64,000 nt of DNA, taken from positions 36,329 to 100,328 of the forward strand of contig JBKBRB010000004.1 in NCBI GenBank assembly GCA_046292465.1, given 5' to 3'. This stretch comes from Chloroherpetonaceae bacterium (GTDB lineage Bacteria; Bacteroidota; Chlorobiia; Chlorobiales; Thermochlorobacteraceae). The translations under genes and the position numbers were made by a program. The notes below the pieces were generated by a model. That model was given only the letters and a program-made list of their open reading frames with translations, was not told where the DNA came from and did not search any database. Within the stretch, counting starts at the first letter, position 1; each line of letters starts with the position of its first letter. Below, in pieces: positions 12,371-63,803 of the stretch.

Positions 12371-13129
12371 ATGAAGCAAAATGCATTCACAGCGGTTCTT
12401 ATTACGATTGCCGCTAGCGTCTCGTTCTCGTTCTACTTTTTCTACATGGGCAATCAGCCCAAAGAATCAATCTGGCACGCGATGTATGAAGGCGGACCGT
12501 TCGTTGCCGTGCTTATTACTTTGATTATCATGGTTTTTGCCTACATCATTGAGCGCACGATTGCATTGGGGAAAGCGTCGGGCAAATCGACGATGACCGA
12601 TTTTGTCAAGAGCGTCAAAGAAGAAATTGAAACCGGGCGGATTGATAGCGCGATTGAAAAATGCGACCAGCACCAAAGTTCATTGGCGGCTGTAATTCGC
12701 GCTGGTTTGGAGAAACACAAAGAACTTATTGCTAAAAATGTAACTGACCCAGACAAGAAAATCAGCAGTCTGCAAAAGGCTATGGAAGAAGCCACACAAA
12801 TGGAAATGCCTCTTTTGGAGCGCAACTTGGTCGCCATTTCAACGATTGCCTCGATTTCAACAATGGTGGGATTGCTCGGCACAACGATTGGTATGATTCG
12901 CGCCTTTTCAGCGCTTGCTACAGGCGGCGCGCCTGACGCTGTTGGACTTTCACGCGGTATCTCTGAAGCCCTTTACAACACGGCGGGAGGCATTTTTGGC
13001 GGTATCGTCGCTATCGTCGCTTACAACTACTTCACCACGCGCATTGACGGCTTCACACACATGATTGACGAAGCGGCGTTTTACATTGTGCAAACTCTGG
13101 CGACTCGTGACGAAAAAGTGAGCGCATAA
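12371..13129 (+). CDS. exbB: MotA/TolQ/ExbB proton channel
   Basis: 'TMVGLLGTTIGMIRAF', 'GISEALYNTAGG'. Confidence 0.93.
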   Translation: MKQNAFTAVLITIAASVSFSFYFFYMGNQPKESIWHAMYEGGPFVAVLITLIIMVFAYIIERTIALGKASGKSTMTDFVKSVKEEIETGRIDSAIEKCDQHQSSLAAVIRAGLEKHKELIAKNVTDPDKKISSLQKAMEEATQMEMPLLERNLVAISTIASISTMVGLLGTTIGMIRAFSALATGGAPDAVGLSRGISEALYNTAGGIFGGIVAIVAYNYFTTRIDGFTHMIDEAAFYIVQTLATRDEKVSA

Positions 13130-13177
13130 GGCTTAATCACGGCTTTTGATACTGACAACCCAAAATTGGATTAAGCA

Positions 13178-13717
13178 ATGCCGAAAATTAAAACCAAACG
13201 TGTCGGATTCAAGCTTGATATGACCCCAATGGTCGATGTTGCTTTCTTGCTTCTCACGTTTTTTATGCTTACAACACAGTTTAGGCCACCAGAGCCCACT
13301 CCAATCGACTTGCCATCGTCAAATGCAACAGTGCCGTTACCTGATACGGATATCTTGATGGTGCAAATTGGCAAGAGCGACGAACTCTTTTTGGGCGTCG
13401 ACTCACAGCCTGCACGCGAGCGCATCTTTGAAAGCACCATTCGCAAGCAACTTCAAGAAGCCGGATACCCAGCCATTGAAGATTCGCTTCGCAAGTTTAA
13501 GCTTGCCGACGCCTTTGCAGTAAACAAAGAAAATCTCGAAAAAATGATTATCGCCGCTCGCTTTGCCAACCCGAAAGTTCGTCCGGTGATTAAAGCCGAT
13601 GTAAATTCCAGCTACGAGATGGTCGACTTCGTGATGAAGACCTTTAAGAGAACCAACATGCCAACCTTCAATCTAATTACAGGCCTTGAAGGCGGATTGG
13701 GCGATTCTAACAAATAA
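13178..13717 (+). CDS. exbD: ExbD/TolR biopolymer transport protein
   Basis: 'DMTPMVDVAFLLLTFFMLTT' TM motif. Confidence 0.92.
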   Translation: MPKIKTKRVGFKLDMTPMVDVAFLLLTFFMLTTQFRPPEPTPIDLPSSNATVPLPDTDILMVQIGKSDELFLGVDSQPARERIFESTIRKQLQEAGYPAIEDSLRKFKLADAFAVNKENLEKMIIAARFANPKVRPVIKADVNSSYEMVDFVMKTFKRTNMPTFNLITGLEGGLGDSNK

Positions 13718-13729
13718 CCGAAGAACACT

Positions 13730-14329
13730 ATGGCTGCCGTTGATTCACCAGAACCTAAAAAAAGTAAAAAAGGCAAAAAAGCACCGAAGCGTGTCGGCTT
13801 CAAGCTTGACATGACTCCCATGGTCGATGTCGCCTTCTTGCTTCTAACCTTTTTCATGCTTACGACTACGTTTTCCAAACCGAAAACGATGGAAATTAAC
13901 CTGCCCGCAGAAAAGAACGAGGAGACCAAAGTCGAAATTGCTGAATCTAATGTGCTTACGGTGCGTGTTATGGAAGGCGACAAAGCCTATTGGAACATCG
14001 GCTTCAAACCGCCTGAAGCTATTGAACTTTACGACACGGACGATAATGCTAAACCGTCAATTAGCGATAAGTTTCGTAAAATGCTTAGGGAAAATCGAGA
14101 CCGAATTCGCCAAGAAGTTGGTGAAGACGTGATGGTTTTGGTTTTGAAATTGGACAAGAAAGCTCGATACCGAAATCTTGTTGACATCATTGACGAGTTG
14201 AATATTGCTAATCCTCCTATCAAGCGATTTAGTATTGCTGATTTTACTGAGGCTGACGGCGAAGAAATTGCACAAATGCTTGCCGGTGGTGCACAACCTG
14301 AACCTCAACCAAAGGAGAAGAAGAAATGA
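13730..14329 (+). CDS. exbD: ExbD/TolR biopolymer transport protein (second copy)
   Basis: Same TM motif, 'YRNLVDIIDEL'. Confidence 0.92.
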   Translation: MAAVDSPEPKKSKKGKKAPKRVGFKLDMTPMVDVAFLLLTFFMLTTTFSKPKTMEINLPAEKNEETKVEIAESNVLTVRVMEGDKAYWNIGFKPPEAIELYDTDDNAKPSISDKFRKMLRENRDRIRQEVGEDVMVLVLKLDKKARYRNLVDIIDELNIANPPIKRFSIADFTEADGEEIAQMLAGGAQPEPQPKEKKK

Positions 14330-15180
14330 TAGACGAAAAAGAAGTCGTAGAAGTCGCATCGGAGCATAAGAACGGCTTTGTCAAGACGGACTATCTTGAC
14401 ACGGACAAACTGCGCCGTTTGAACTATGGTAATCTCGTGTTGCGACGAGAATATCATGTGTTCATGGCAAAGGGTGTTGGCTATGCTATCAGCATTTTTG
14501 CGACGATTTTCATCATCTATTTAAGTTGGGGCTGGATTAAGCAGCTTCTCACTGCGTCAGACGATGAAATCGTGATGGTAAAGCCACGCCAGCTTTCCAT
14601 CTCGGATTTGCAGCCGCCACCGCCGATGGACCAAACAAAACCACCACCACCACCACCGCCTGCGTTTAAGCCCCCTGCTGCGCCTGACGTTGGCGAAATC
14701 AAAAAGGTGCGCGACGAAGAAGCGCCTCGCCAAAAAACATTTGCTGACCAAGACCTTATCAAAAAAGCCACCGCAAAAGGCGCCGCTGGTGAAGGCGATA
14801 CCACAGGGCTCTCCGACCCAAACATTGGTTTCGCTGGTGGTGTAGGAAGCGGACCAATTGAACCTGCAGACGACGCGGGAGATCCACCAGACTTTGTTGC
14901 TGTCGAAAAAGATCCCGAATTCGTTAACCGCGTTCAAGCCGTCTATCCAGAAATGGCAAGAAAAGCCGGCATTGAGGGAAAGGTCATTGTCAAAGTGCTT
15001 GTTGGGAAAAATGGGAAACCTGAAAAAGCACAAATTATTAAAAATCCAGGCACCGATATTTTTGACGAATCCGTTATCAACGCCGTGATGAGTTCAACTT
15101 ACACGCCTGCCATTCAAAACGGGCGACCTGTGAAAGTATGGCTGATGGTACCGTTTAGTTTCAAGCTCAATACACGCTAA
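14326..15180 (+). CDS. tonB: Energy transducer TonB
   Basis: N-terminal TM, Pro-rich linker, 'YPEMARKAGIEGKV...PAIQNGRPVKV' TonB_C. Confidence 0.92.
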   Translation: MIDEKEVVEVASEHKNGFVKTDYLDTDKLRRLNYGNLVLRREYHVFMAKGVGYAISIFATIFIIYLSWGWIKQLLTASDDEIVMVKPRQLSISDLQPPPPMDQTKPPPPPPPAFKPPAAPDVGEIKKVRDEEAPRQKTFADQDLIKKATAKGAAGEGDTTGLSDPNIGFAGGVGSGPIEPADDAGDPPDFVAVEKDPEFVNRVQAVYPEMARKAGIEGKVIVKVLVGKNGKPEKAQIIKNPGTDIFDESVINAVMSSTYTPAIQNGRPVKVWLMVPFSFKLNTR

Positions 15181-29444: not shown

Positions 29445-29735
29445 TTGTATCTTGGAAAAGTCATCGGCACAGTTTGGGCAACGCAAAAACATCAATCTCT
29501 TATCGGCGAGAAACTGCAACTTGTTCAGCCGATTGATGCCGGCCATGCTTCGGTAGGCAAAGTGCTCGTTGCTATTGATGCAATCGGTGCAGGAGTCGGT
29601 GAAACCGTGATGTATGTTACTTCTTCAGAAGCAGCGATTCCAATTAAATTGCGTAAGCATCTAAAACTTATCCCGACCGATGCCACCATCGTCGGAATTG
29701 TTGACAGCATCAGCGTTCAAACCGCTCCGAAATAG
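29445..29735 (+). CDS. Bacterial microcompartment pentamer (EutN/CcmL), second paralog
   Basis: TTG start; 'GKVIGTVWATQK', 'AIDAIGAGVGE', 'DATIVGIVD'. Confidence 0.92.
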   Translation: MYLGKVIGTVWATQKHQSLIGEKLQLVQPIDAGHASVGKVLVAIDAIGAGVGETVMYVTSSEAAIPIKLRKHLKLIPTDATIVGIVDSISVQTAPK

Positions 29736-49069: not shown

Positions 49070-49678
49070 CTACAAATTTAACGCTTTTGTGCCCAAAATT
49101 TCGGCTACCGACATCTTCACATCAGGAAACTGCACAGGACTAATCCACTCACGCTCATCATATCGCTTCACTTCACTGTATCCCTCTGCACTCGGCTTGC
49201 GATAAACTTCCACACACCTTTCCATCAAATTCACTAACCACACTTCCACCACGCCAAAGCGCGCATACAGCGGCACTTTCACCGTGCGGTCAATCTTGAT
49301 GCTTGAATCCGACACTTCCACCACTAACAGCGCATCTTTGCCACTCGGTCGCTCTTCACTTCCCATCATCGGCAACAGCACCACATCAGGCTCAGGCTCG
49401 TTGTAGTCATCTAACCACAACGGATTCTGAACGGAAACAAATGCTTGGTTTCCCACCTTTCTTTCAAAGAATTTTGTTAAGCGCGTTACGCACCAGAAGT
49501 GAGGCAAGCCGACAGGACTCATTTTCTTGTAGATTTCTCCGTCAATCAATTCAAGTTTTTCATCGGACGATAACACGCCACACTCCGCCATTTTCAAATA
49601 CTCCCTCACTGTCCATCGTCGCCTCTCAAACCTTGCGTCCGCCACTGCCCATCCTCTTGTCTTTGATGCTACACTCAT
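49070..49678 (-). CDS. Uma2/DUF820 family endonuclease-like protein
   Basis: 'ELIDGEI', 'EPEPDV', 'LVVEVSDSS', 'KVPLYAR.GV.EVWLVN'. Confidence 0.92.
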   Translation of the reverse strand: MSVASKTRGWAVADARFERRRWTVREYLKMAECGVLSSDEKLELIDGEIYKKMSPVGLPHFWCVTRLTKFFERKVGNQAFVSVQNPLWLDDYNEPEPDVVLLPMMGSEERPSGKDALLVVEVSDSSIKIDRTVKVPLYARFGVVEVWLVNLMERCVEVYRKPSAEGYSEVKRYDEREWISPVQFPDVKMSVAEILGTKALNL

Positions 49679-50234
49679 TCCTTCACCCTCTTACCCTTTT
49701 GTGCCCAAAATTTCGGCTACCGACATTTTCACATCAGGAAACTGCACAGGACTAATCCACTCGCGCTCATCGTATCGCTTCACTTCACTGTATCCCTCCG
49801 CACTCGGCTTGCGATAAACTTCCACACACCTTTCCATCAAATTCACTAACCACACTTCCACCACGCCAAAGCGTGCATACAGCGGCACTTTCACCGTGCG
49901 GTCAATCTTGATGCTTGAATCCGACACTTCCACCACTAACAGCGCATCTTTGCCACTTGGTCGCTCTTCACTTCCCATCATCGGCAACAGCACCACATCA
50001 GGCTCAGGCTCGTTGTAGTCATCTAACCACAACGGATTCTGAACGGAAACAAATGCTTGGTTTCCCACCTTTCTTTCAAAGAATTTTGTTAAGCGCGTTA
50101 CGCACCAGAAGTGAGGCAAGCCGACAGGACTCATTTTCTTGTAGATTTCTCCATCAATCAATTCAAGTTTTTCATCGGACGATAACACGCCACACTCCGC
50201 CATTTTCAAATACTCCCTCACTGTCCATCGCCGC
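49084..50234. repeat. Direct repeat of ~539 bp (49084-49622 / 49696-50234), 612-bp offset
   Basis: By-eye alignment shows 8 substitutions, all synonymous transitions. Confidence 0.93.
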
Positions 50235-50284
50235 TTTTCAGGCAAGTTTTGAACGATTTCTTCTGTTGTGTGCGTCGCAATCAT
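49691..50284 (-). CDS. Uma2/DUF820 family endonuclease-like protein (tandem near-identical copy)
   Basis: Same motifs; start overlaps the gatB stop (ATGA). Confidence 0.92.
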
Positions 50285-51735: not shown

Positions 51736-52284
51736 TTATGCGAAAATTTCTTCGGCAGAAAGATTCAAGTCAGGCAACACAGGCGTTGTGATGCGTTCAT
51801 TTCCCGTTGATTTTGAGAGGCGCGTTGGCTCGCCATTGATGAGTGCATAACGCTCGACGGCGCGTTCGCTTACATCGATTATCCAACATTCTTTCACACC
51901 GTATTTGAAGTAAATGGGCATCTTTTTGCGCAAGTCGTAATACGCTGTTGAAGGCGACAGCACTTCCACAACCAAATCCGGTGCGCCGCGCACAATGTCT
52001 GTTCCGATTATGGAAGCGCGTTCATTTGAAATAAACATCACATCAGGTTGAAAGGTGTTGTGTATGTCAAGAAACACGTCCATCGGAGCAATTATGACGC
52101 GCCCGAGTTTGTTTTTCATCACAATCTCGCGCAACATCGCGCCAAGATTCAATACCGCATTTTGATGTGCAACGATTGGGGTTGGCATCTCGATGATTTC
52201 TCCGTCGATAAGTTGATACTTCGCGCCTTCGGGCAAGAGGGCGTAATCGTCGTAAGTTGCTTTTTGTTTTTCAGCCGTGAGCAT
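51736..52284 (-). CDS. Uma2/DUF820 family endonuclease-like protein (divergent third copy)
   Basis: 'YQLIDGEI', 'QPDV', 'GAPDLVVEVLSPST', 'Y..YGVKECWI'. Confidence 0.92.
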   Translation of the reverse strand: MLTAEKQKATYDDYALLPEGAKYQLIDGEIIEMPTPIVAHQNAVLNLGAMLREIVMKNKLGRVIIAPMDVFLDIHNTFQPDVMFISNERASIIGTDIVRGAPDLVVEVLSPSTAYYDLRKKMPIYFKYGVKECWIIDVSERAVERYALINGEPTRLSKSTGNERITTPVLPDLNLSAEEIFA

Positions 52285-52432
52285 CTTTATCAAAATTTTG
52301 TTTTGGGAATATAAACAAAATGCCGCGTGCGTTGAGCAACTGCAATCTATTTGGCTTTGCCTCTCCAAGAATCTGTGTTCTGCTTATCAAAATTCCGTAA
52401 CTTCGCCGTTCAAATTCAATCCACCTTCAACG

Positions 52433-55554: not shown

Positions 55555-55842
55555 ATGCAGCACATCGATAAACTTTTAGATTTGCTTTCCATTCACGCGG
55601 ACGTTCAAAACAAAAGTATTATTGAGCAGGACGCAAGCAACACCGAACTGTTGCAGATTCAATCCGAGATTCAAGAGCTACGGACAGACTTACTGCAACT
55701 GCGCGCAGAGTTTCAGCAATTGCATAACGATTTGTCTAAAATCTGCATGATTCTCACCACGCCGAAAACTGAACGCATGGAATTTGCAATGTCGATTTTC
55801 GGTGATGAATTCGAAAAACTCAAAGAATCTGAAAACATTTAA
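55555..55842 (+). CDS. Small coiled-coil hypothetical protein
   Basis: Heptad pattern; paralogous to the next ORF. Confidence 0.7.
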   Translation: MQHIDKLLDLLSIHADVQNKSIIEQDASNTELLQIQSEIQELRTDLLQLRAEFQQLHNDLSKICMILTTPKTERMEFAMSIFGDEFEKLKESENI

Positions 55843-56203: not shown

Positions 56204-57316
56204 ATGTCTTTCACTGGCACCATCAAAGGATGGACGATTACGGAAATGTTACAGCTCATTCGCCAACTCAAAAAAACTGGCGCAATGATTGCGGAAGTAA
56301 CAACTTCTTACGGAGAGGTTACCAAAACTGTCTTTTTCCGAAATGGGCTGGTTATCGCTGTCGATACAGGTAGCGACGACTTGGGCGCAGTGCTTCTCGA
56401 GGAAAATTTAATTACCCGCCAAGATCTTGACGAAGCGATTGCACTTCAAAAAGCGAAGTATCCTGACAAACGCATTGAGCAAATTCTTTTAGCAACGAAG
56501 AAAGTTGATGCTGCCAAAGTCGTCAAAGCGATTCGTATTCAAATTGAACGCACCATTACCTCGCTGTTGCAGGAAAAAAATGTGCGCGTAAATTTTGACC
56601 CTGATGCGCCGCTCACCGTTCAAGGCCTGAGCACCGGCGTAGATATACAAGGCATTATGCTCTCTGCTTCCGTCAAGGTTGATGAACTCGGGCTTGTCAA
56701 ACAGCGCATTCCGAGCACCACACTTGTTCCCAAGTTGACGAAACGCGGTGAAGAAGAGAAAAATGAAATCGCGCTCAAACTGTCTGAGTGGAAGGTCTTT
56801 CTAGCGATTGATGGTAAAACCGACATCAAAACTATTGCGCTCAAGGTCAAGATGGACGAGGTTCAGGTCATGAAAGCCCTTTTGGTTTTCTTGGACAACA
56901 AATGGATTGAGCTTCCACAAGGTAGCGCTGCTGAGCGCAAGAAGGTTTTAATTGTCGACGATAGCGCCGTGATTCGCATAGCGGTCAAAAAAGCATTAGC
57001 GGATTCGGGCTATGAACTCTTAGACGCTGGCACGGGCGAAATGGGCTTGAAACTCGCCAAAGAAAAACAACCCGACTTGATTCTGCTCGATGTCATGCTT
57101 CCTGATACTACCGGCTTGAAAGTGTGCAAAACGCTCCGCACCGAGATGGAAATTACAACGCCCATCGTCATGCTTTCCGCAAAAGATGCTGAAATTGACC
57201 GCAACTTGGGAATTCACGCTGGCGCAAACGACTACGTTACCAAGCCGTTCAAAGACGCTGACCTCGTGAGCGTGGTCAATAAATACTTGAAGCAAGCAGA
57301 AACAACGACGGCTTAA
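56204..57316 (+). CDS. PatA-like response regulator: DUF4388 + MshEN-like motif + wHTH-like + REC
   Basis: 'FTGTI...EMLQLI...KTG...FFRNG' (DUF4388), 'LGAVLLEENLIT..DLDEAIALQ', 'EWKVFLAIDG', REC with VDD / LLDVMLP / TKPF. Confidence 0.82.
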   Translation: MSFTGTIKGWTITEMLQLIRQLKKTGAMIAEVTTSYGEVTKTVFFRNGLVIAVDTGSDDLGAVLLEENLITRQDLDEAIALQKAKYPDKRIEQILLATKKVDAAKVVKAIRIQIERTITSLLQEKNVRVNFDPDAPLTVQGLSTGVDIQGIMLSASVKVDELGLVKQRIPSTTLVPKLTKRGEEEKNEIALKLSEWKVFLAIDGKTDIKTIALKVKMDEVQVMKALLVFLDNKWIELPQGSAAERKKVLIVDDSAVIRIAVKKALADSGYELLDAGTGEMGLKLAKEKQPDLILLDVMLPDTTGLKVCKTLRTEMEITTPIVMLSAKDAEIDRNLGIHAGANDYVTKPFKDADLVSVVNKYLKQAETTTA

Positions 57317-57373
57317 GTCAAACACATTTAATTTTCAAAAAAACATTCACTCAACAAAGAACGCCTGTTAATT

Positions 57374-57739
57374 ATGCCTAAGGCTCTAATTATTGACGAC
57401 AGCGCCGTAGAGCGCACGATTATCTCCAAGGTCATGACCACACTCGGTTATACCATTCTCGAAGCCAACGATGGCGAAGAAGGTGAAGAAAAAGCTCGTG
57501 CCACCAAGCCCGACGTCATTTTGCTTGATGTCGTGATGCCGAAAAAAGATGGCTTTCAAGTCTGCCGAAACCTTAAAAAAGACGCTACCACAGGTAGCAT
57601 TCCAATTATCATGATTACCTCCAAGAACCAAGAAAGTGATAAGTTCTGGGGCATGAAACAAGGTGCAGATGTTTATCTTATCAAACCATTCAGCGAAGAC
57701 GACTTGATTTCTGCGGTTAAAAAAGCCACGAAAACTTGA
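57374..57739 (+). CDS. Single-domain response regulator, CheY/PilH-like
   Basis: 'IIDDS', 'LLDVVMP..DGFQVCR', 'SKNQESDKFWGMKQGA' PilH-like signature. Confidence 0.9.
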   Translation: MPKALIIDDSAVERTIISKVMTTLGYTILEANDGEEGEEKARATKPDVILLDVVMPKKDGFQVCRNLKKDATTGSIPIIMITSKNQESDKFWGMKQGADVYLIKPFSEDDLISAVKKATKT

Positions 57740-57780
57740 ACGACTTTCCCTTTTCTGAACTAAACGATTGCTTATGAACG

Positions 57781-58410
57781 ATGAATCACGAACGACTTGT
57801 AGAGCAACTCTCAGAGCTGAAGTTTGTCATTCCTTCTGGCATGACAACACGCGATTTAGAAGGCATGGCGAGCGTTTTAGAGCGGCTTCGCGCGATTGAA
57901 TCTGATAAAAGCACGCCTAAACACGACGACGAAGCTCGCGAGCAGTATATTGCCATGCTTATCGGAGAAAAAGAACTTGCGTTTCGCGTTGTAGATATCG
58001 AAGCGATTTTGGACGTTCAAAAAATCACGCCAGTGCCCGGCTTGCCGAATTTTATACTTGGCGTTTGTAATGTGCGTGGGGAAATCACCTCCGTCATTGA
58101 CATTCAGCGGATTTTGAACATCGAGTCGCGCCGTCAGAAATCGCGCCGACAAAAAGCTGCTGAAAAAATGGTGATTGCCAGAAACAATAAGTTTTCCGTT
58201 TGCTTCATCGTCGATGCCGTCTTGGACGTGCTTCGTGTCGCCGAACCTGAAATTGAAAAAGTCAATGCTGCCGACGGCGATATGGAGCGGCTTGCTCCGT
58301 TTTCACGAGGCGTTTATGTTCGCCCTGTCGACACAGGCAAACGCGATGTTGTGATTTTAATCGACACCAAAAAACTCTTGGACGCACCTGAAATGGTGCA
58401 GTTTCAATAA
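57781..58410 (+). CDS. cheW: CheW-like coupling protein
   Basis: 'ITPVPGLPNFILGVCNVRGEITSVID', 'FIVDAV'. Confidence 0.88.
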   Translation: MNHERLVEQLSELKFVIPSGMTTRDLEGMASVLERLRAIESDKSTPKHDDEAREQYIAMLIGEKELAFRVVDIEAILDVQKITPVPGLPNFILGVCNVRGEITSVIDIQRILNIESRRQKSRRQKAAEKMVIARNNKFSVCFIVDAVLDVLRVAEPEIEKVNAADGDMERLAPFSRGVYVRPVDTGKRDVVILIDTKKLLDAPEMVQFQ

Positions 58411-58457
58411 CCTAACTTTTGAGTACAATTTTTTTAAACCTTCAAATTCTTTGAGCA

Positions 58458-59936
58458 ATGGCAACTAATCCACAACAATCGGGCGAGCAAAACAAAGACG
58501 TATTGAACTTAGGTCTGGATTTAGACAGCATTTTGGGAGATGTACTCAGCAACGAGCAACAAGCCGCAACGGTTTTTTCAACCAGCGACGAAGGGCTTCT
58601 TCGCATCGATGGCGATAGAATTGTCTTAGAAGTTGATGAAGAATTGGAACAAGGCATTGATGAAGAAGCCAAAATGTTCCAAGCGAACGAGTTCTACAAA
58701 AAGAAAGATTGGTTTAATGCGCTCATTGTCGCGCTCGCGCTGAACATTCGTTTCAAGCAAGGGGTAGGCAAACGAAGCGACGCGATTGTGCGCCGTCAAG
58801 ACGAAATTCTCTTTGAATGTAATTATCAGATTGCGGCTGACCATCTCAATAAAATTAAGACCTCCAAAGGGGACGAACAGTTGGAGCACAAACTTGCCGC
58901 CATTATGCACTTCTACACAGCGCTCGACCAAACTCCGCTTAAAGGTCAAGAGCAATATCGCGATAAAGCCAAGCAGGTGATTGACAGCATGGTTACGCGC
59001 GACCGTGCTGGCGGGCAAGCTTACATCAAAGCCGGATTCTTCAAAAAAATTGAAGTGCCATCGCTTGAAGACAAAGCACAGAAAGCCTTTTATTGGAAAG
59101 AACGAGCAAACAATGAAAAAGACCCTGTCCGCAAAGAGTTTTATCTTTTGATGACCTTTGCTTCCGACATTGGCTACTTCCCCTATCAATTAGCATTGGC
59201 AAATTTCTACCTCGAAACCGGTCGTTTAGATGAAGCTTGCCGCTACATCAAGGTCGCCTTGCCACTCATCAAAGATGAAGGCATCGATTTTCTTAATGCG
59301 GTTCGCAAAAAAGATAGTGCCTACTCTGACCGATTCATCGAGCGACGTTTGAAATCCGATGTGCGACAACTTCGCAACCGATTAGAACAGCCCGACCCAA
59401 AAGAAGCCAATGAAAAAGACGAAGCCCGAAAAGCCCAAATGGCAAAACAGCGTATCCGCAAATTCCTCGAGACCGTCGACCTCTGGGAAAAGCAAATAGA
59501 ATCCATGAAACACGATGTGCCCTTCAAAGGCTCAACCTTGCGCGTTACATATATGAGTTCCCTTGTCGATTTAATGGAAGAAGTTTCTAAACGCATGCCC
59601 GGCGCCGTCGTCCAAGATTATATTGACCGATACAAAACCACAGAAGTACGCAGCACACAAAACCCGAACATCTTGAACTTCATTGATTTCAGTTTCAAGA
59701 ACTCGATTGTGCCTGACGAGAAAACCGTTCAAGGGTTAGTCGTGGAAGGCGAAGCCGAGGCGAAGTTGGATAAACTTATGAAAACCGTTGTTGAATACTT
59801 CAACACAGAAATTGGCATTCTCAACAAATCTCTGCTCGAAGCAAAAGCCAATGTTGCAAGAGATGTCGATGAACTTGTAAACGCCATGAAGTTGCAAGGC
59901 TATAAATTCAAATCAATACCTGTTCTGACCAAATAA
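58458..59936 (+). CDS. Hypothetical soluble helical protein (TPR-like segments) within the chemosensory cluster
   Basis: 492-aa ORF, acidic N-terminus, 'LALANFYLETGRLDEACRY'; no kinase motifs seen. Confidence 0.8.
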   Translation: MATNPQQSGEQNKDVLNLGLDLDSILGDVLSNEQQAATVFSTSDEGLLRIDGDRIVLEVDEELEQGIDEEAKMFQANEFYKKKDWFNALIVALALNIRFKQGVGKRSDAIVRRQDEILFECNYQIAADHLNKIKTSKGDEQLEHKLAAIMHFYTALDQTPLKGQEQYRDKAKQVIDSMVTRDRAGGQAYIKAGFFKKIEVPSLEDKAQKAFYWKERANNEKDPVRKEFYLLMTFASDIGYFPYQLALANFYLETGRLDEACRYIKVALPLIKDEGIDFLNAVRKKDSAYSDRFIERRLKSDVRQLRNRLEQPDPKEANEKDEARKAQMAKQRIRKFLETVDLWEKQIESMKHDVPFKGSTLRVTYMSSLVDLMEEVSKRMPGAVVQDYIDRYKTTEVRSTQNPNILNFIDFSFKNSIVPDEKTVQGLVVEGEAEAKLDKLMKTVVEYFNTEIGILNKSLLEAKANVARDVDELVNAMKLQGYKFKSIPVLTK

Positions 59937-59982
59937 CATTGCGGAGCCTGAGTATTTGTTCTCGATTTTAACACCAAAGCAG

Positions 59983-60034
59983 CCGTCCGCCGCGTTCGTC
60001 ATTCTCTCTGCCGACGCTCGGACGGTTTATCTTT
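59983..60034 (+). terminator. Hairpin/attenuator between the 492-aa gene and the MCP
   Basis: ccgtccg...cggacgg stem followed by tttatcttt. Confidence 0.45.
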
Positions 60035-60045
60035 AATTACTCAAT

Positions 60046-61998
60046 ATGGAAACGCAAAAACTTCGTCTCGACCAACGTCTCACGATTCTTGTCGGAATCA
60101 TTTTCGCAACGGTATTTATTGCCGTTAATGCCGTTCTGCAAATACGAGAGAGACATCAACTTGAAACTCAACTCAAAGAAGAAGTGATTTCAACGGCAAC
60201 GACCTTGCAAGGACTGTGGGAGTATAGCGCCGCGACGATTCTGCAACAGCCGTTTTCCATAACGGATTCAACGAGCGACCTGCTCACGCTCATTCACTAC
60301 AACCCGACGCTGTTTCCGACTGACACCACCTTTCAAATCCTACCGTCGCCGCGCCAATATGACATTCGCAATATCAAAGTAAGACAAGTCTCTCTCAATT
60401 TCCGAAATCCGAGAAACAAACCAGATGCGTTTGAGGAAAAATCGCTCAAAGAAATTTCCCGAGCAATTGCCGAACTCAAAACGAAAGGTCAAACGAAAAT
60501 CAACCCAGAATCTGTTGGGATATGGCAAGAGACGAAATTTGAAGGCATGCCCGTCTATCGTTACGTCCAACCGATATTCATTCGCAAACAATGCCTAACC
60601 TGCCATGGCGATCGAGCCGATGCGCCTGAGTTCGTGCAGTCAAAATATGAAACTGGCTATGGCTACCGTCAAGGCGATATACGCGGCGTAATCTCCATCA
60701 TTGTGCCTGCCGAAACCATACGCCAAGCCGAGACGCTTAATTTGCTCGTAGGCACTGGGCTCTCCATTTTAGGCATTGCGGCTGCCATTTCTGCCGCGTT
60801 TTATTTCATTCGTCGCCAACTCTCCGAGCCAATCCAACGCATTGCAGCATCGGCAAAGCGCATTTCTGAAGGCAACCTGACTGAGCGCATGTCATACAAT
60901 TCGGCAGACGAATTAAGCCTCATCGTTTCATCATTTAACATAATTGTCGACAACATTAAAGAGTCTGTCCGCGAAGTGCTCGATATGACAATGCGCCTGA
61001 ACCAAATTGCCTTAGACATTAGCAACTCGTCAACAGGCGTTATGAAAAGTTCGGAAGCACAAACCAATGCGGTCAAAGACATTATCCAATCCGTCTCCAA
61101 GATTGAAGAAACCACCGCAACCGTCTCGGAAGGCATGCAAGGACTGACCATCAACGTGCGCGAAACACGCTCTTTTATTGAAGACCTCATCAGTTCAATT
61201 CAAGAAGCGGCGCGAAGCATTCAAGACTCGAACCAAGTCTTCAGTCAAGTCATCAATGAAGTTCAGGGTGGGAAGTTCGGCATTGAACAAATCAGCCTCA
61301 CGATTCTCGGCATTACCGATAAGCTTGATTCACTTCGTCAGCAAGTGGCACAATTAGATAAAAACATTCGGGAAATTGACATCACTGCTGGTGCCGCCTC
61401 ACGCACAGCAAAGCAAACAAACCTGCTTGCGGTTAATGCAACCATTGAATCGGCGATTGCGAGCGAATCAAGCAAAGGATTCAGAGTCGTTGCCAATGAA
61501 ATTCGCGGATTAGCCGAACAGTCAGCGCGCTCTTCTCTACAAATTCAAGACATGGTGAACGGACTTCAAGCCAGCATGCTCAAAATCAACGACACGATTT
61601 TGGAAACCAATCAAGCCGTGCGCGACAGTTTTAACACGGTTAAAGATGCAGAAAAAACGCTCGATAAAATCACACAATACTACTCGCGCTCCAGCGCTAT
61701 TATGGGTCGCCTCTCGAGCCTCATTGACGCCCAAATGCGAAGTAGCCAACAGGTCACAATGAAAACGACCGACATGACGATTCGCACGACACAAATGATC
61801 GAGCAATCCGAACAGCAGCGTGCCGTCGGGCAACGACTTCTCAAATCGCTTGACGCGCTCAATCAAACCATTCAGCGCAATAAAGATGCCTCTTCTGAAA
61901 TTACACATTTGGCACAAGAACTTATCGGACAAGCCGAGCAACTGCAAAACATCGTGCGCCAATACAAACTCACGGAGTCTTCACAAATTTTCAGCTAA
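60046..61998 (+). CDS. Methyl-accepting chemotaxis protein with periplasmic c-type heme (Tll0287/DUF3365-like) sensor
   Basis: TM1, 'RQVSLNFRNPRNKPDAFE', CLTCH, 'GYRQGDIRG', TM2, HAMP, 'QTNLLAVNATIE...KGFRVVANEIRGLAEQS'. Confidence 0.88.
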   Translation: METQKLRLDQRLTILVGIIFATVFIAVNAVLQIRERHQLETQLKEEVISTATTLQGLWEYSAATILQQPFSITDSTSDLLTLIHYNPTLFPTDTTFQILPSPRQYDIRNIKVRQVSLNFRNPRNKPDAFEEKSLKEISRAIAELKTKGQTKINPESVGIWQETKFEGMPVYRYVQPIFIRKQCLTCHGDRADAPEFVQSKYETGYGYRQGDIRGVISIIVPAETIRQAETLNLLVGTGLSILGIAAAISAAFYFIRRQLSEPIQRIAASAKRISEGNLTERMSYNSADELSLIVSSFNIIVDNIKESVREVLDMTMRLNQIALDISNSSTGVMKSSEAQTNAVKDIIQSVSKIEETTATVSEGMQGLTINVRETRSFIEDLISSIQEAARSIQDSNQVFSQVINEVQGGKFGIEQISLTILGITDKLDSLRQQVAQLDKNIREIDITAGAASRTAKQTNLLAVNATIESAIASESSKGFRVVANEIRGLAEQSARSSLQIQDMVNGLQASMLKINDTILETNQAVRDSFNTVKDAEKTLDKITQYYSRSSAIMGRLSSLIDAQMRSSQQVTMKTTDMTIRTTQMIEQSEQQRAVGQRLLKSLDALNQTIQRNKDASSEITHLAQELIGQAEQLQNIVRQYKLTESSQIFS

Positions 61999-62102: not shown

Positions 62103-63749
62103 TCATTCACGAGAAACCTGAGCTTCATAGTCGCGCCGATATTTCTCAAGTCCTTCGAAAATGGCTTCGGCGATTAGCGTTTGTCCCGTTTCAGAGGCTA
62201 AAAATTTCTCTTCATTTGGATTGGAAATATAACCCGTTTCAATCAAGATGCTCGGCATTGAGGGCGTCCAAAGCACCATGAACCCTGCTTGCTTGACACC
62301 ACGATTTTGACGCGCCGCTCGCCGTGCAATGTCGTTGCTGATGATTTCCGCCAACTTTTCCGATTGATGCACAAAGGCGTTTTGCGCCATCGTAACCATG
62401 ATTAAGTTTTCTTCGGTGAAGTTTTTGTAGCGTTCTTGGTAGTCGCTCTCTTCGACCATAACCGCGTTTTCGCGTTGGGCGACTTTGAGCGCAGCGTCCG
62501 TTTTGTGTAGCCCAAGCAAATAGACCTCCACACCGTCCGCCTTGCGATTGACGCTTGCGTTGCAGTGGACGCTGACAAACAGTTTGGCGTTGTGGCGATT
62601 GGCAATTTTACCTCGTTCATCAAGCTCTACAAACTTATCGGAATCGCGCGTGTAGACCACCTTCACATCTTTCCAATTCTTCTCTATCAATTTTCCGACC
62701 TTCTTGACAATTGCAAGCGTAATATCCTTTTCATAATGCCCACTTGCACCAATTGCCCCAACATCTTTTCCGCCATGACCCGCATCAAGCGCAATCACAT
62801 CTAACTTCCACTTGCTTCGCTGTTCATCGAGCGTTGCGTTGATTTGCACTTCCTTGTTTTCTTGCTCAATGATTTCTTGAACATTCACATCGCGCAAAGC
62901 CAGCAAGATGAAGTTGTTTGTGCCTTGTTCGCGCGTGAGGTCAGTGGATTTAATCGTGTATTTCTGTGCATCAAATTCAAAGGTCAGTTGCAAACTCCCT
63001 CTGAGTGAAATCGGCTTAATGCGTCGGAGAAATCCGTTCTTGAAGGTTTGAGAAAGTGCCTGCATATCACCTGTCGCGCCGACGAATGTTAGATAAGCAA
63101 AACCGTTCTTATCGGGCGGAATAAATTCATATTTCAAATTCGGCTTCGTGGAAATAATACGCACAATCACACCATTCACTTTCTCTTCGACGATGATGTT
63201 TTGAATCGTGTGCCGTGCAATCATTTCAATCGGCACAGAGGCTTTGGCAGTATCGAGTGAGAAGGGTTGCGTAAAATCAAACGAGAGCACGCCGCTGAGC
63301 GTGTCGCTTTTTGCGTCGAGAAACATTCCGAAAAGGATTGCCGCTTGATGTGGCTCGAGATAAATTTTATCGCCATACAGAATGAGCGGCGAATCGAGTT
63401 GAATAATTCTATGCGGCTTGTTTTCAGTCGCGTTTTGAATCTTGATAAAATGATTATTGGCTTTGAGTTCAAGCACAAGCCGATGCTGTGCCTTGCTCAA
63501 AGTTGAAATGCTGACACTTTGATTGGTAACGGTTGGCGTAATTTTGAGCGCGTTGCACACATCGACCGCCGTTGCGACGAGTTTATTTTGCAACGAATAG
63601 ACGGGAATGTCGTCCGTATAGGCGCGTCCGCCTTCAAGGCTCACCGCAATGCTGAACTTCGTTTGCCCCAAAAGCGAACTGATACAAAACAGCAAAATTG
63701 CAAGCGAAAGCGTATATTGCCGCGCGGGAAGAGAAGATATTTTCAACAT
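62103..63749 (-). CDS. N-acetylmuramoyl-L-alanine amidase (Amidase_3)
   Basis: 'LDAGHGGKD', 'EKDITL', 'FVSVHCN', 'VKQAGFMVL', 'IETGYISN'; signal peptide. Confidence 0.93.
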   Translation of the reverse strand: MLKISSLPARQYTLSLAILLFCISSLLGQTKFSIAVSLEGGRAYTDDIPVYSLQNKLVATAVDVCNALKITPTVTNQSVSISTLSKAQHRLVLELKANNHFIKIQNATENKPHRIIQLDSPLILYGDKIYLEPHQAAILFGMFLDAKSDTLSGVLSFDFTQPFSLDTAKASVPIEMIARHTIQNIIVEEKVNGVIVRIISTKPNLKYEFIPPDKNGFAYLTFVGATGDMQALSQTFKNGFLRRIKPISLRGSLQLTFEFDAQKYTIKSTDLTREQGTNNFILLALRDVNVQEIIEQENKEVQINATLDEQRSKWKLDVIALDAGHGGKDVGAIGASGHYEKDITLAIVKKVGKLIEKNWKDVKVVYTRDSDKFVELDERGKIANRHNAKLFVSVHCNASVNRKADGVEVYLLGLHKTDAALKVAQRENAVMVEESDYQERYKNFTEENLIMVTMAQNAFVHQSEKLAEIISNDIARRAARQNRGVKQAGFMVLWTPSMPSILIETGYISNPNEEKFLASETGQTLIAEAIFEGLEKYRRDYEAQVSRE

Positions 63750-63803
63750 CAAATGTTTACAGGTTTGGGAGAACTTTCTGTGATTCCATTCCCCTAACAA
63801 TTT

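Follow-up and report, generated by a model that had tools for sequence, protein, structure and literature searches.

A two-locus Chp/Tax-like chemosensory gene set linked to MglA and MglB in relatives of Chloroherpeton, putatively for pilus-free gliding

Three described systems resemble the genes reported here. The cyanobacterial type IV pilus taxis loci (Tax, Pix, Pil and Hmp) run patA-cheY-cheW-mcp-cheA, and the Pseudomonas Pil-Chp system comprises PilG, PilH, PilI, PilJ, PilK, ChpA, ChpB and ChpC. The Frz-RomR-MglA/MglB circuit, found in the gliding rods of Myxococcus, joins a chemosensory kinase and a Group 1 MglA with MglB and other roadblock proteins; in Myxococcus and Bdellovibrio the mglA gene lies away from those of its partners (PMC4316618; sources given by PMC or preprint number are cited for the passages retrieved from them). 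We analyzed a 64,000-nucleotide stretch (the window, G000:C4:36329-100328) of the 2.70-Mb, 98.4% complete genome of a Chloroherpetonaceae bacterium (G000), in which five co-oriented genes with spacers of 41-109 nt encode a PatA-type response regulator, a CheY/PilH-like receiver, a CheW adaptor (CheW1) and a 492-residue protein (ORF492), as well as a methyl-accepting chemotaxis protein (MCP1). Named homologues set the organism among Chloroherpetonaceae/Thermochlorobacter relatives. With a probability of roughly 0.57, these genes are half of a two-locus Chp/Tax (ChpA-like) pathway with an MglA/MglB polarity switch, likely serving pilus-free gliding.

The kinase lies on another contig. A genome search with the CheA dimerisation, CheW and histidine phosphotransfer (HPt) families identifies one 2,056-residue ChpA-like CheA (G000:C2:226616-232786) with two HPt domains (HTLKG histidines H1171 and H1327), a dimerisation domain, an HATPase domain with N, G1 and G2 boxes, a CheW domain and a receiver (REC) domain. 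The first-pass annotation of the window had listed the five genes in this order with a convergent amidase gene after them, which open reading frames (ORFs) and Pfam bear out, and had noted no cheA, cheB or cheR; genome-wide searches put the sole CheA on another contig and detect neither CheB nor CheR in G000. Its description of the cluster as CheA-less is true of the window alone, and a CheA-less pathway is rejected because CheA is present in this genome and in every carrier, that is, in each of the 21 genomes with the ORF492 gene (16 Chlorobiales and five of a sister family, f8). The same annotation had also considered a kinase encoded elsewhere, and this is what the genomes contain: one full, canonical CheA, with MCP, CheW and receivers alongside as in other chemosensory cores, in 16/16 Chlorobiales carriers and 5/5 f8 genomes. 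Both REC domains of the window locus retain the acidic pair DD along with the phospho-acceptor Asp and the Lys, in agreement with the annotation, and CheA is very probably the phosphodonor. The genome also encodes two further HPt-bearing hybrid kinases.

Many of the nearest CheA matches from outside are named ChpA, and identity outside the clade is ~40%. In a quick, midpoint-rooted tree of 83 rows picked from the loci and the matches, which leaves out most near-identical Thermochlorobacter matches and contains no characterised reference, the CheAs of the carriers form one clade (SH-aLRT 100) that follows the families. The CheA of the complete genome G123 has three HPt domains, and a separate ORF before its cheA (L042:5671-6558) corresponds to the N-terminal 295 residues of the G000 CheA at 26% identity.

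The second locus is organized on one strand as mcp2-cheA-REC/PATAN/roadblock-roadblock-mglA. MCP2 has sCache_3, HAMP and MCPsignal domains, and cheA is followed by genes for a 382-residue REC-DUF4388-roadblock protein, a 122-residue roadblock protein and MglA, whose motifs are intact (G1, Arg at 53, TVPGQ, NKRD). An MglB-like gene and a second roadblock gene are also conserved (C2:30488-31379 in G000); the NCBIfam MglB model matches an orthologue of the MglB-like gene at E 1e-19, under its cut-off, and in G123-G125, G134, G137 and the f8 genomes the pair sits near mcp2 or in divergent orientation to it. By sequence, the G1 motif, intrinsic Arg, G3 Gln, G4 motif and roadblock partner place this MglA/MglB module in Group 1. 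The supplement of PMC4316618 lists the C. thalassium MglA (Ctha_2358) as Group 1 in a PATAN>MglB>MglA neighbourhood, and a second C. thalassium MglA with a PATAN:MglB fusion. A second, more distant MglA (44-46% identity) occurs in family f3 (G123:C1:463724, G124:C63, G125:C5). Three paralogous exported TonB-C-like proteins are encoded in G000 (C2:236656-237513, C2:27725-28606, C28:9582-10421), two of them no more than 3 kb away from the mglA locus and from the pair with the MglB-like gene; they are possible envelope-spanning motor parts.

The two loci travel together. In a class sample of 138 genomes, the ORF492 gene is present in 16, namely all members of the Chlorobiales families f1, f3 and f4, and in 0/122 Chlorobiaceae (f2). 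All 16 also encode the window-type cheW, a distant long CheW-bearing CheA, exactly two MCPs and MglA. Among the 122 Chlorobiaceae, CheW domains are found in two genomes, MCP matches in two (one over the cut-off) and MglA in one, and these matches look unrelated or lie on short contigs. On short contigs, two Chlorobiaceae metagenome-assembled genomes have che genes of a different type (L058 in G075:C220, G075:C120 and G091:C92), and one of them mglA too, through either transfer or binning error. By tblastn, the first four genes of the window locus keep their order in 21/21 carriers and all five in 20/21; in the exception, G129, mcp1 is on another contig. Such an order is not accidental. The stretch from cheA to mglA is co-oriented in 18/21, being broken by contig ends in G126 and G149 and split in G128. 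PatA is 53-96% identical over 14 aligned orthologues from two classes. CheW1 is the sole stand-alone CheW of G000, and only one occurs throughout genus g1, which makes the MCP2-CheA locus dependent on the window locus. Dedicated CheR and CheB were not found in the Chlorobiales carriers; CheR appears only in 1,000-1,400-residue fusions in three f3 genomes and as one weak match, and in G123 cheB/cheR is a single 1,373-residue fusion gene elsewhere in the genome. Thus, the Chlorobiales have lost dedicated cheR and cheB, and genus g1 and G128 have lost two extra cheW genes as well. Computed against G133 and G130, dN/dS is 0.03-0.12 for the window genes (patA 0.03-0.04, cheY 0.04), 0.03-0.28 for the second locus and 0.01-0.09 for four controls; all ten genes are under purifying selection.

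Among 401 sampled genomes of the phylum, f8 is the one further carrier family outside the class (5/5 genomes). Its PatA N-termini are 52-56% identical, its ORF492 is 32-34% identical, and its first locus holds the same five-gene set. The second locus is more elaborate, running mcp2-cheR-hpt-cheA-cheB-cheW-cheW-REC/PATAN/roadblock-roadblock-mglA, with a stand-alone 134-residue HPt-like ORF before cheA. Because f8 keeps both loci plus cheR and cheB, the two-locus split is old and predates the class. An additional chemosensory cluster in f8 (L079, L080; G141, G157), absent from Chlorobiales, has two or three MCP genes besides those for CheB, CheR-TPR and a 1,070-1,090-residue CheA.

Comparison with the described systems reveals familiar modules in a new arrangement. 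Like the cyanobacterial loci, the gene set has a PATAN-REC protein, CheY, CheW and MCP in that order, a C-terminal REC on CheA and, in Chlorobiales, no dedicated CheR/CheB; it differs in that cheA lies in a second locus with mglA, that the ORF492 gene is added, and that the PilB1/PilC targets were not found in the 16 Chlorobiales carriers. With Pil-Chp it shares the giant multi-HPt CheA-REC and, before cheA, the gene for an MCP2 of 40H-like length class, and f8 adds cheR, cheB and extra cheW genes around cheA. These features, with PATAN-REC and CheY ahead of cheW and mcp, are those of the type IV pilus class, and the output of that class, a pilus motor, was not found in the 16 Chlorobiales carriers. 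Further differences from Pil-Chp are the PATAN domain of the first regulator, a second, heme-type receptor and the linked MglA/MglB. In contrast to the Myxococcus circuit, mglA here comes last in the gene run of cheA, a single REC-PATAN-roadblock protein is the candidate link, and the receptors are membrane-bound. G000 has a single MotA/TolQ/ExbB gene, which sits within an exbB-exbD-exbD-tonB run (window 12371-15180), so a separate Agl-type motor is not evident (RomR, RomX and Glt were not searched for). A published precedent is the set of PATAN>MglB>MglA neighbourhoods that includes the Ctha_2358 triplet (Wuichet and Sogaard-Andersen 2014, PMC4316618); however, the columns returned from it hold no Che or MCP gene and make no link to cheA or to the window locus. 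Chlorobi are not mentioned in the retrieved parts of PMC4546325, PMC3441718 and bioRxiv 10.1101/2022.05.07.491037, and a literature search, with subscription papers outside its coverage, found no description of the combined system. Every module is of a known kind; what is new is their combination, a two-locus Chp/Tax-like pathway linked to MglA/MglB, which adds a putative scaffold restricted to the family and a heme receptor of unusual form, in bacteria in which the pilus motor that such a pathway normally controls was not found.

Searches for the usual outputs were negative. PilB/PilT-family ATPases (PF00437) exceed the cut-off in 0/16 Chlorobiales carriers, with two weak partial matches, and the PilC family (PF00482) is found in 0/16, one complete genome among them, searched without 8,000 of its bases, while the positive controls of these pilus-motor searches succeeded in 13/14. 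A pattern search detects no prepilin-like N-terminus in G000. FlhA is found in 0/4 Chlorobiales carriers and 0/5 f8 genomes (control positive in 4/14), and GldN in 0/17 carriers versus 9/29 other phylum genomes, the remaining three genomes, all Chlorobiaceae, being negative; a GldM search gave 0/5, with no control positive either. Since PilB/PilT, PilC, FlhA and GldN were not found, the usual outputs are missing. SprA, on the other hand, is present in 17/17 carriers tested, and 54 ORFs of G000 end in a C-terminal motif of type IX secretion systems (T9SS) by pattern, which together with the missing GldN describes a reduced T9SS. C. thalassium moves by gliding and also flexes, whereas Chlorobiaceae lack motility (PMC3362086, PMC9318685). 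The PATAN domains of Synechocystis target PilB1 and PilC (bioRxiv 10.1101/2021.06.11.447907); because such targets were not found in the 16 Chlorobiales carriers, the PATAN domains here need a different one, for which the MglA module encoded in the same run of genes as cheA is the obvious candidate. The possibility of gliding or polarity control, raised in the first-pass annotation, gains independent support from this linkage of cheA to mglA and a roadblock gene, combined with the negative pilus-motor searches. A helical insertion in PATAN (window 56204-56700) is strongly conserved; it resembles a degenerate MshEN motif in which the c-di-GMP-binding Arg-Leu-Gly is altered.

MCP1 has two features that the first-pass annotation missed, a c-type-heme sensor and an altered receptor tip. 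Its PF11845 (Tll0287-like) domain (E 1.6e-29) is periplasmic, lying between the transmembrane helices ahead of HAMP, and the only orthologue without the CxxCH segment is L038:7226-9130 (G124). The signalling hairpin is unbroken in the predicted model, and the conserved bands on its arms lie 57-105 residues from the tip, a stalk region that may provide a binding site. From the tip to the end MCP1 has 165 residues versus 137 in MCP2, which makes it 48H-like and MCP2 40H-like; the four extra heptads per arm (~4 nm) could offset ~30 extra residues in MCP2, which are likely a second HAMP, so that both tips reach one baseplate. MCP2 retains the canonical IEAARA in 18/18 examined, and the altered position of MCP1 would correspond to R388 of Tsr. 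In E. coli, Tsr R388 changes to V, M or F destabilise the kinase-ON state; mutants altered at R388 retain the ability to form trimers and signalling complexes, and most fail in chemotaxis (PMC6681711). A term search of the retrieved text of that paper did not find the changes to Ile or Leu. A 2026 preprint (PMC12889525) renames the Tll0287/DUF3365 domain sCache_heme and describes a HAMP-linked member that behaves as a nitric oxide (NO) sensor. MCP1 shares with these sensors a CxxCH Cache domain between two transmembrane helices before HAMP, but its hairpin is 48H-like and ends in a non-canonical tip, and the NO behaviour was shown for another protein. A plasmid search with MCP1 returned generic MCPs only.

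ORF492 (Ctha_2455 in Chloroherpeton thalassium) belongs to a closed family. A word-indexed search gives 54 matches, of which the named ones are all Chlorobiales, and 1.84 billion representatives yield four matches, all of the same family; a profile search for distant relatives adds nothing further, and no solved-structure sequence matches at E < 0.01. Weak matches of the family to apolipoprotein E were rejected, as they fall on an N-terminal extension absent from this protein. The predicted structure (26 sequences, mean pLDDT 83.6, pTM 0.71) has an acidic disordered N-terminus and helices throughout, arranged as helical pairs resembling the tetratricopeptide repeat (TPR) and helical bundles. 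Foldseek finds no match at E 0.001, the best being E 5e-3 with TPR and solenoid proteins on top; a wider structure search aligns 108 residues of segment 61-175 with the Bacteroides TPR protein 4i17_A (Z 9.3, a middling score for helical repeats; rmsd 3.6), Atlas matches are all below 0.9, and TPR_7 is detected in 2/20 family members, beneath the cut-off. Invariant residues concentrate at 57-168, and residues 58-178, the most conserved part, are a candidate binding surface. The one invariant His of the family, H151, lies in a helix that fits a TPR helix-B pattern, not an HTLKG motif. In G129 ORF492 stayed with patA-cheY-cheW while mcp1 moved, a single observation. On the basis of the model, ORF492 is likely a TPR-like scaffold and not a kinase. 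The pairing of a putative TPR-like scaffold with a polarity module or a Chp module resembles, by analogy only, that of SgmX, FimV and Bd2492, TPR proteins that partner polarity systems; the searches made gave no match of ORF492 to any of the three, in sequence or in structure. A possible kinship of ORF492 with the TPR part of some cyanobacterial MCPs was not confirmed by a literature search.

A pathway consistent with these data can be outlined. MCP1 would sense a gas or redox cue, with NO the best-supported ligand for its sensor family, and MCP2 another cue; as in related systems, both receptors would couple through CheW to CheA. CheA would phosphorylate the PatA-type regulator, CheY and the REC-PATAN-roadblock protein. 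PatA and CheY may act as a PilG/PilH-like pair, and the REC-PATAN-roadblock protein may relay the signal to MglB/MglA, the role that RomR has in Myxococcus. MglA-GTP would then mark the leading pole, with the heme-c input tuning reversals. More speculatively, ORF492 could hold the proteins of the window locus at the array or the pole, possibly on the MCP1 stalk band. In Chlorobiales the pathway would run without a dedicated CheR/CheB pair.

Several points weigh against this interpretation. First, the link between the two loci rests on sequence comparison. Their separation is ~120 kb in G123, a complete genome, and ~500 kb in G128, where the mglA block is also ~130 kb from cheA. Second, the 21 carriers are kin from two clades, so their co-occurrence amounts to about two independent observations; SprA shows the same gross pattern (all tested carriers versus 0/3 Chlorobiaceae), the Chlorobiaceae having lost many things. 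Third, the two MCPs differ in length class, and receptors of different length class usually form separate arrays. Fourth, a classical PAS histidine kinase is encoded just upstream of patA in 5/5 f8 genomes, an alternative phosphodonor, and 4/5 of these genomes carry a single PilB/GspE-like ATPase along with a single PilC/GspF-like gene, which makes an ancestral pilus or secretion output possible. Fifth, motility is recorded among the carriers for C. thalassium only, and the searches identified no motor. Finally, G135 has frameshifts in ORF492, patA, mcp1 and cheA (L041, L055); unrelated neighbours are interrupted too, and these are likely sequencing errors.

The alternative that survives best keeps the same two-locus pathway and MglA switch and assigns them an output other than movement: polarity of secretion or adhesion, through the SprA-type export system with its numerous substrates, or mat aggregation, flexing or cell shape. 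The prevalence of SprA and of T9SS-type ORFs, the failure to find a known gliding motor and the unrecorded motility of the uncultured carriers all suit such an output. However, the only carrier in culture moves by gliding, the non-carriers lack motility, and those Group 1 MglA systems that have been characterised govern motility or predation polarity (PMC4316618); we consider this alternative rather unlikely. Less probable still is a separate branch, in which MCP1, CheW1 and ORF492 form their own complex and another kinase phosphorylates the receivers, or in which MCP1 damps the MCP2-CheA array. The PAS kinase of f8, the two other hybrid kinases of G000, the different length class of MCP1, and the loss of its tip Arg in 21/21, given that the E. 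coli Tsr substitutions destabilise the kinase-ON state (PMC6681711), would fit such a branch. It is opposed by CheW1 as the only stand-alone CheW in the genus, by the trimers and signalling complexes that the Tsr mutants still form (PMC6681711), and by the MCP1 stalk, which might compensate for the added MCP2 residues as described above.

Two further alternatives are very improbable. The genes might be remnants of a flagellar chemotaxis system since lost, a reading put forward for C. thalassium and Ca. Thermochlorobacter (PMC3362086), and FlhA, the flagellar export gate, was indeed not found in nine carriers, dedicated CheR/CheB are missing from Chlorobiales, and the MCP1 tip is altered. Yet the dN/dS values of the five window genes contradict this reading, which is rejected on them; gene order is kept across two classes, CheA is complete and ChpA-like rather than of the flagellar type, and the retrieved passage of PMC3362086 lists cheBRW and mcp, not cheA, with the cheB/cheR of G123 being the fusion noted above. 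ORF492 as a replacement phosphodonor, the other option raised by the first-pass annotation, has in its favor one invariant His and a fixed place between cheW and mcp, but it is rejected as a kinase or HPt protein because the model is all-helical with TPR or solenoid proteins as best matches, no HATPase, HisKA or HPt family matches any of 20 family members, H151 is not in an HTLKG motif, and every carrier has a complete CheA. The annotation had named two observations that would jointly speak against its proposal, a canonical cheA that co-occurs with the cluster and an ORF492 gene not conserved at this position in relatives; the former is found, and the latter is not, the position being kept in 21/21 carriers.

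Features of the window locus are listed in Table 1. The amidase gene adjoins the five-gene locus in only some genomes of the genus, and promoter and terminator scans of the locus gave counts at chance level. Upstream of patA, a 95-residue coiled-coil ORF (window 55555-55842) is seen in this genus only, followed in G133 and G130 by a second short paralogue (~36-38% identical). Elsewhere in the window, three Uma2-family genes lie around gatB (49070-50284 and 51736-52368), those at 49070-49678 and 49691-50284 being a near-identical tandem pair, and a lone EutN/CcmL microcompartment vertex gene precedes a sigma-70 gene (29445-29735).

Table 1. Features of the chemosensory locus and its flank, in window coordinates.
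Feature	Position	Strand	Basis or remark
PatA-type response regulator, 370 aa	56204..57316	+	Pfam DUF4388/PATAN at residues 4-161 and C-terminal REC; D296, K347
Single-domain CheY/PilH-like receiver, 121 aa	57374..57739	+	Pfam REC; D52 and K104 intact
CheW1 adaptor, 209 aa, variable N-terminal extension	57781..58410	+	Pfam CheW
ORF492, 492 aa, lineage-restricted all-alpha protein	58458..59936	+	No Pfam match over the cut-off
Most conserved part of ORF492, residues 58-178, TPR-like domain	58629..58991	+	Invariant columns; structural match to 4i17_A
MCP1, 650 aa: Tll0287-like, HAMP and MCPsignal; two transmembrane helices, long hairpin	60046..61998	+	Pfam, model
CxxCH c-type heme motif of MCP1, C183-H187	60592..60606	+	Kept in 20/21 MCP1 orthologues
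Signalling hairpin core of MCP1	61150..61779	+	Conserved band on both arms, residues ~369-417 and 523-578, with variable zones flanking
Non-canonical hairpin tip of MCP1, IESAIA instead of IEAARA	61444..61461	+	Arg replaced by Ile or Leu in 21/21 MCP1 orthologues
Amidase_3, N-acetylmuramoyl-L-alanine amidase, convergent	62103..63800	-	Pfam; flank only, outside the system

Among green sulfur bacteria, movement has been shown for Chloroherpeton alone, and its chemotaxis genes had been described as relics. A complete, selected pathway for which the three usual motors were not detected makes the motor question testable, as it comes with a named kinase, its predicted substrates, a GTPase and a pattern of presence and absence. 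The gene set is also a compact, gene-linked form of the connection from chemosensory kinase to MglA, which in Myxococcus is still indirect, and it offers an example of PATAN output where PilB/PilC were not found, along with a naturally occurring family of receptors that lack the near-universal tip Arg. A bolder version, which we put forward only tentatively and think somewhat unlikely, is that a pilus-less Chp pathway genetically fused to MglA/MglB steers an undescribed gliding motor in relatives of Chloroherpeton and Thermochlorobacter, with the heme-c receptor reading NO or redox state, the REC-PATAN-roadblock protein joining kinase and GTPase directly, and ORF492 being an array accessory of a new class with a grip on the long, non-canonical receptor. 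If so, the distribution across 21 genomes would provide a handle for finding that motor.

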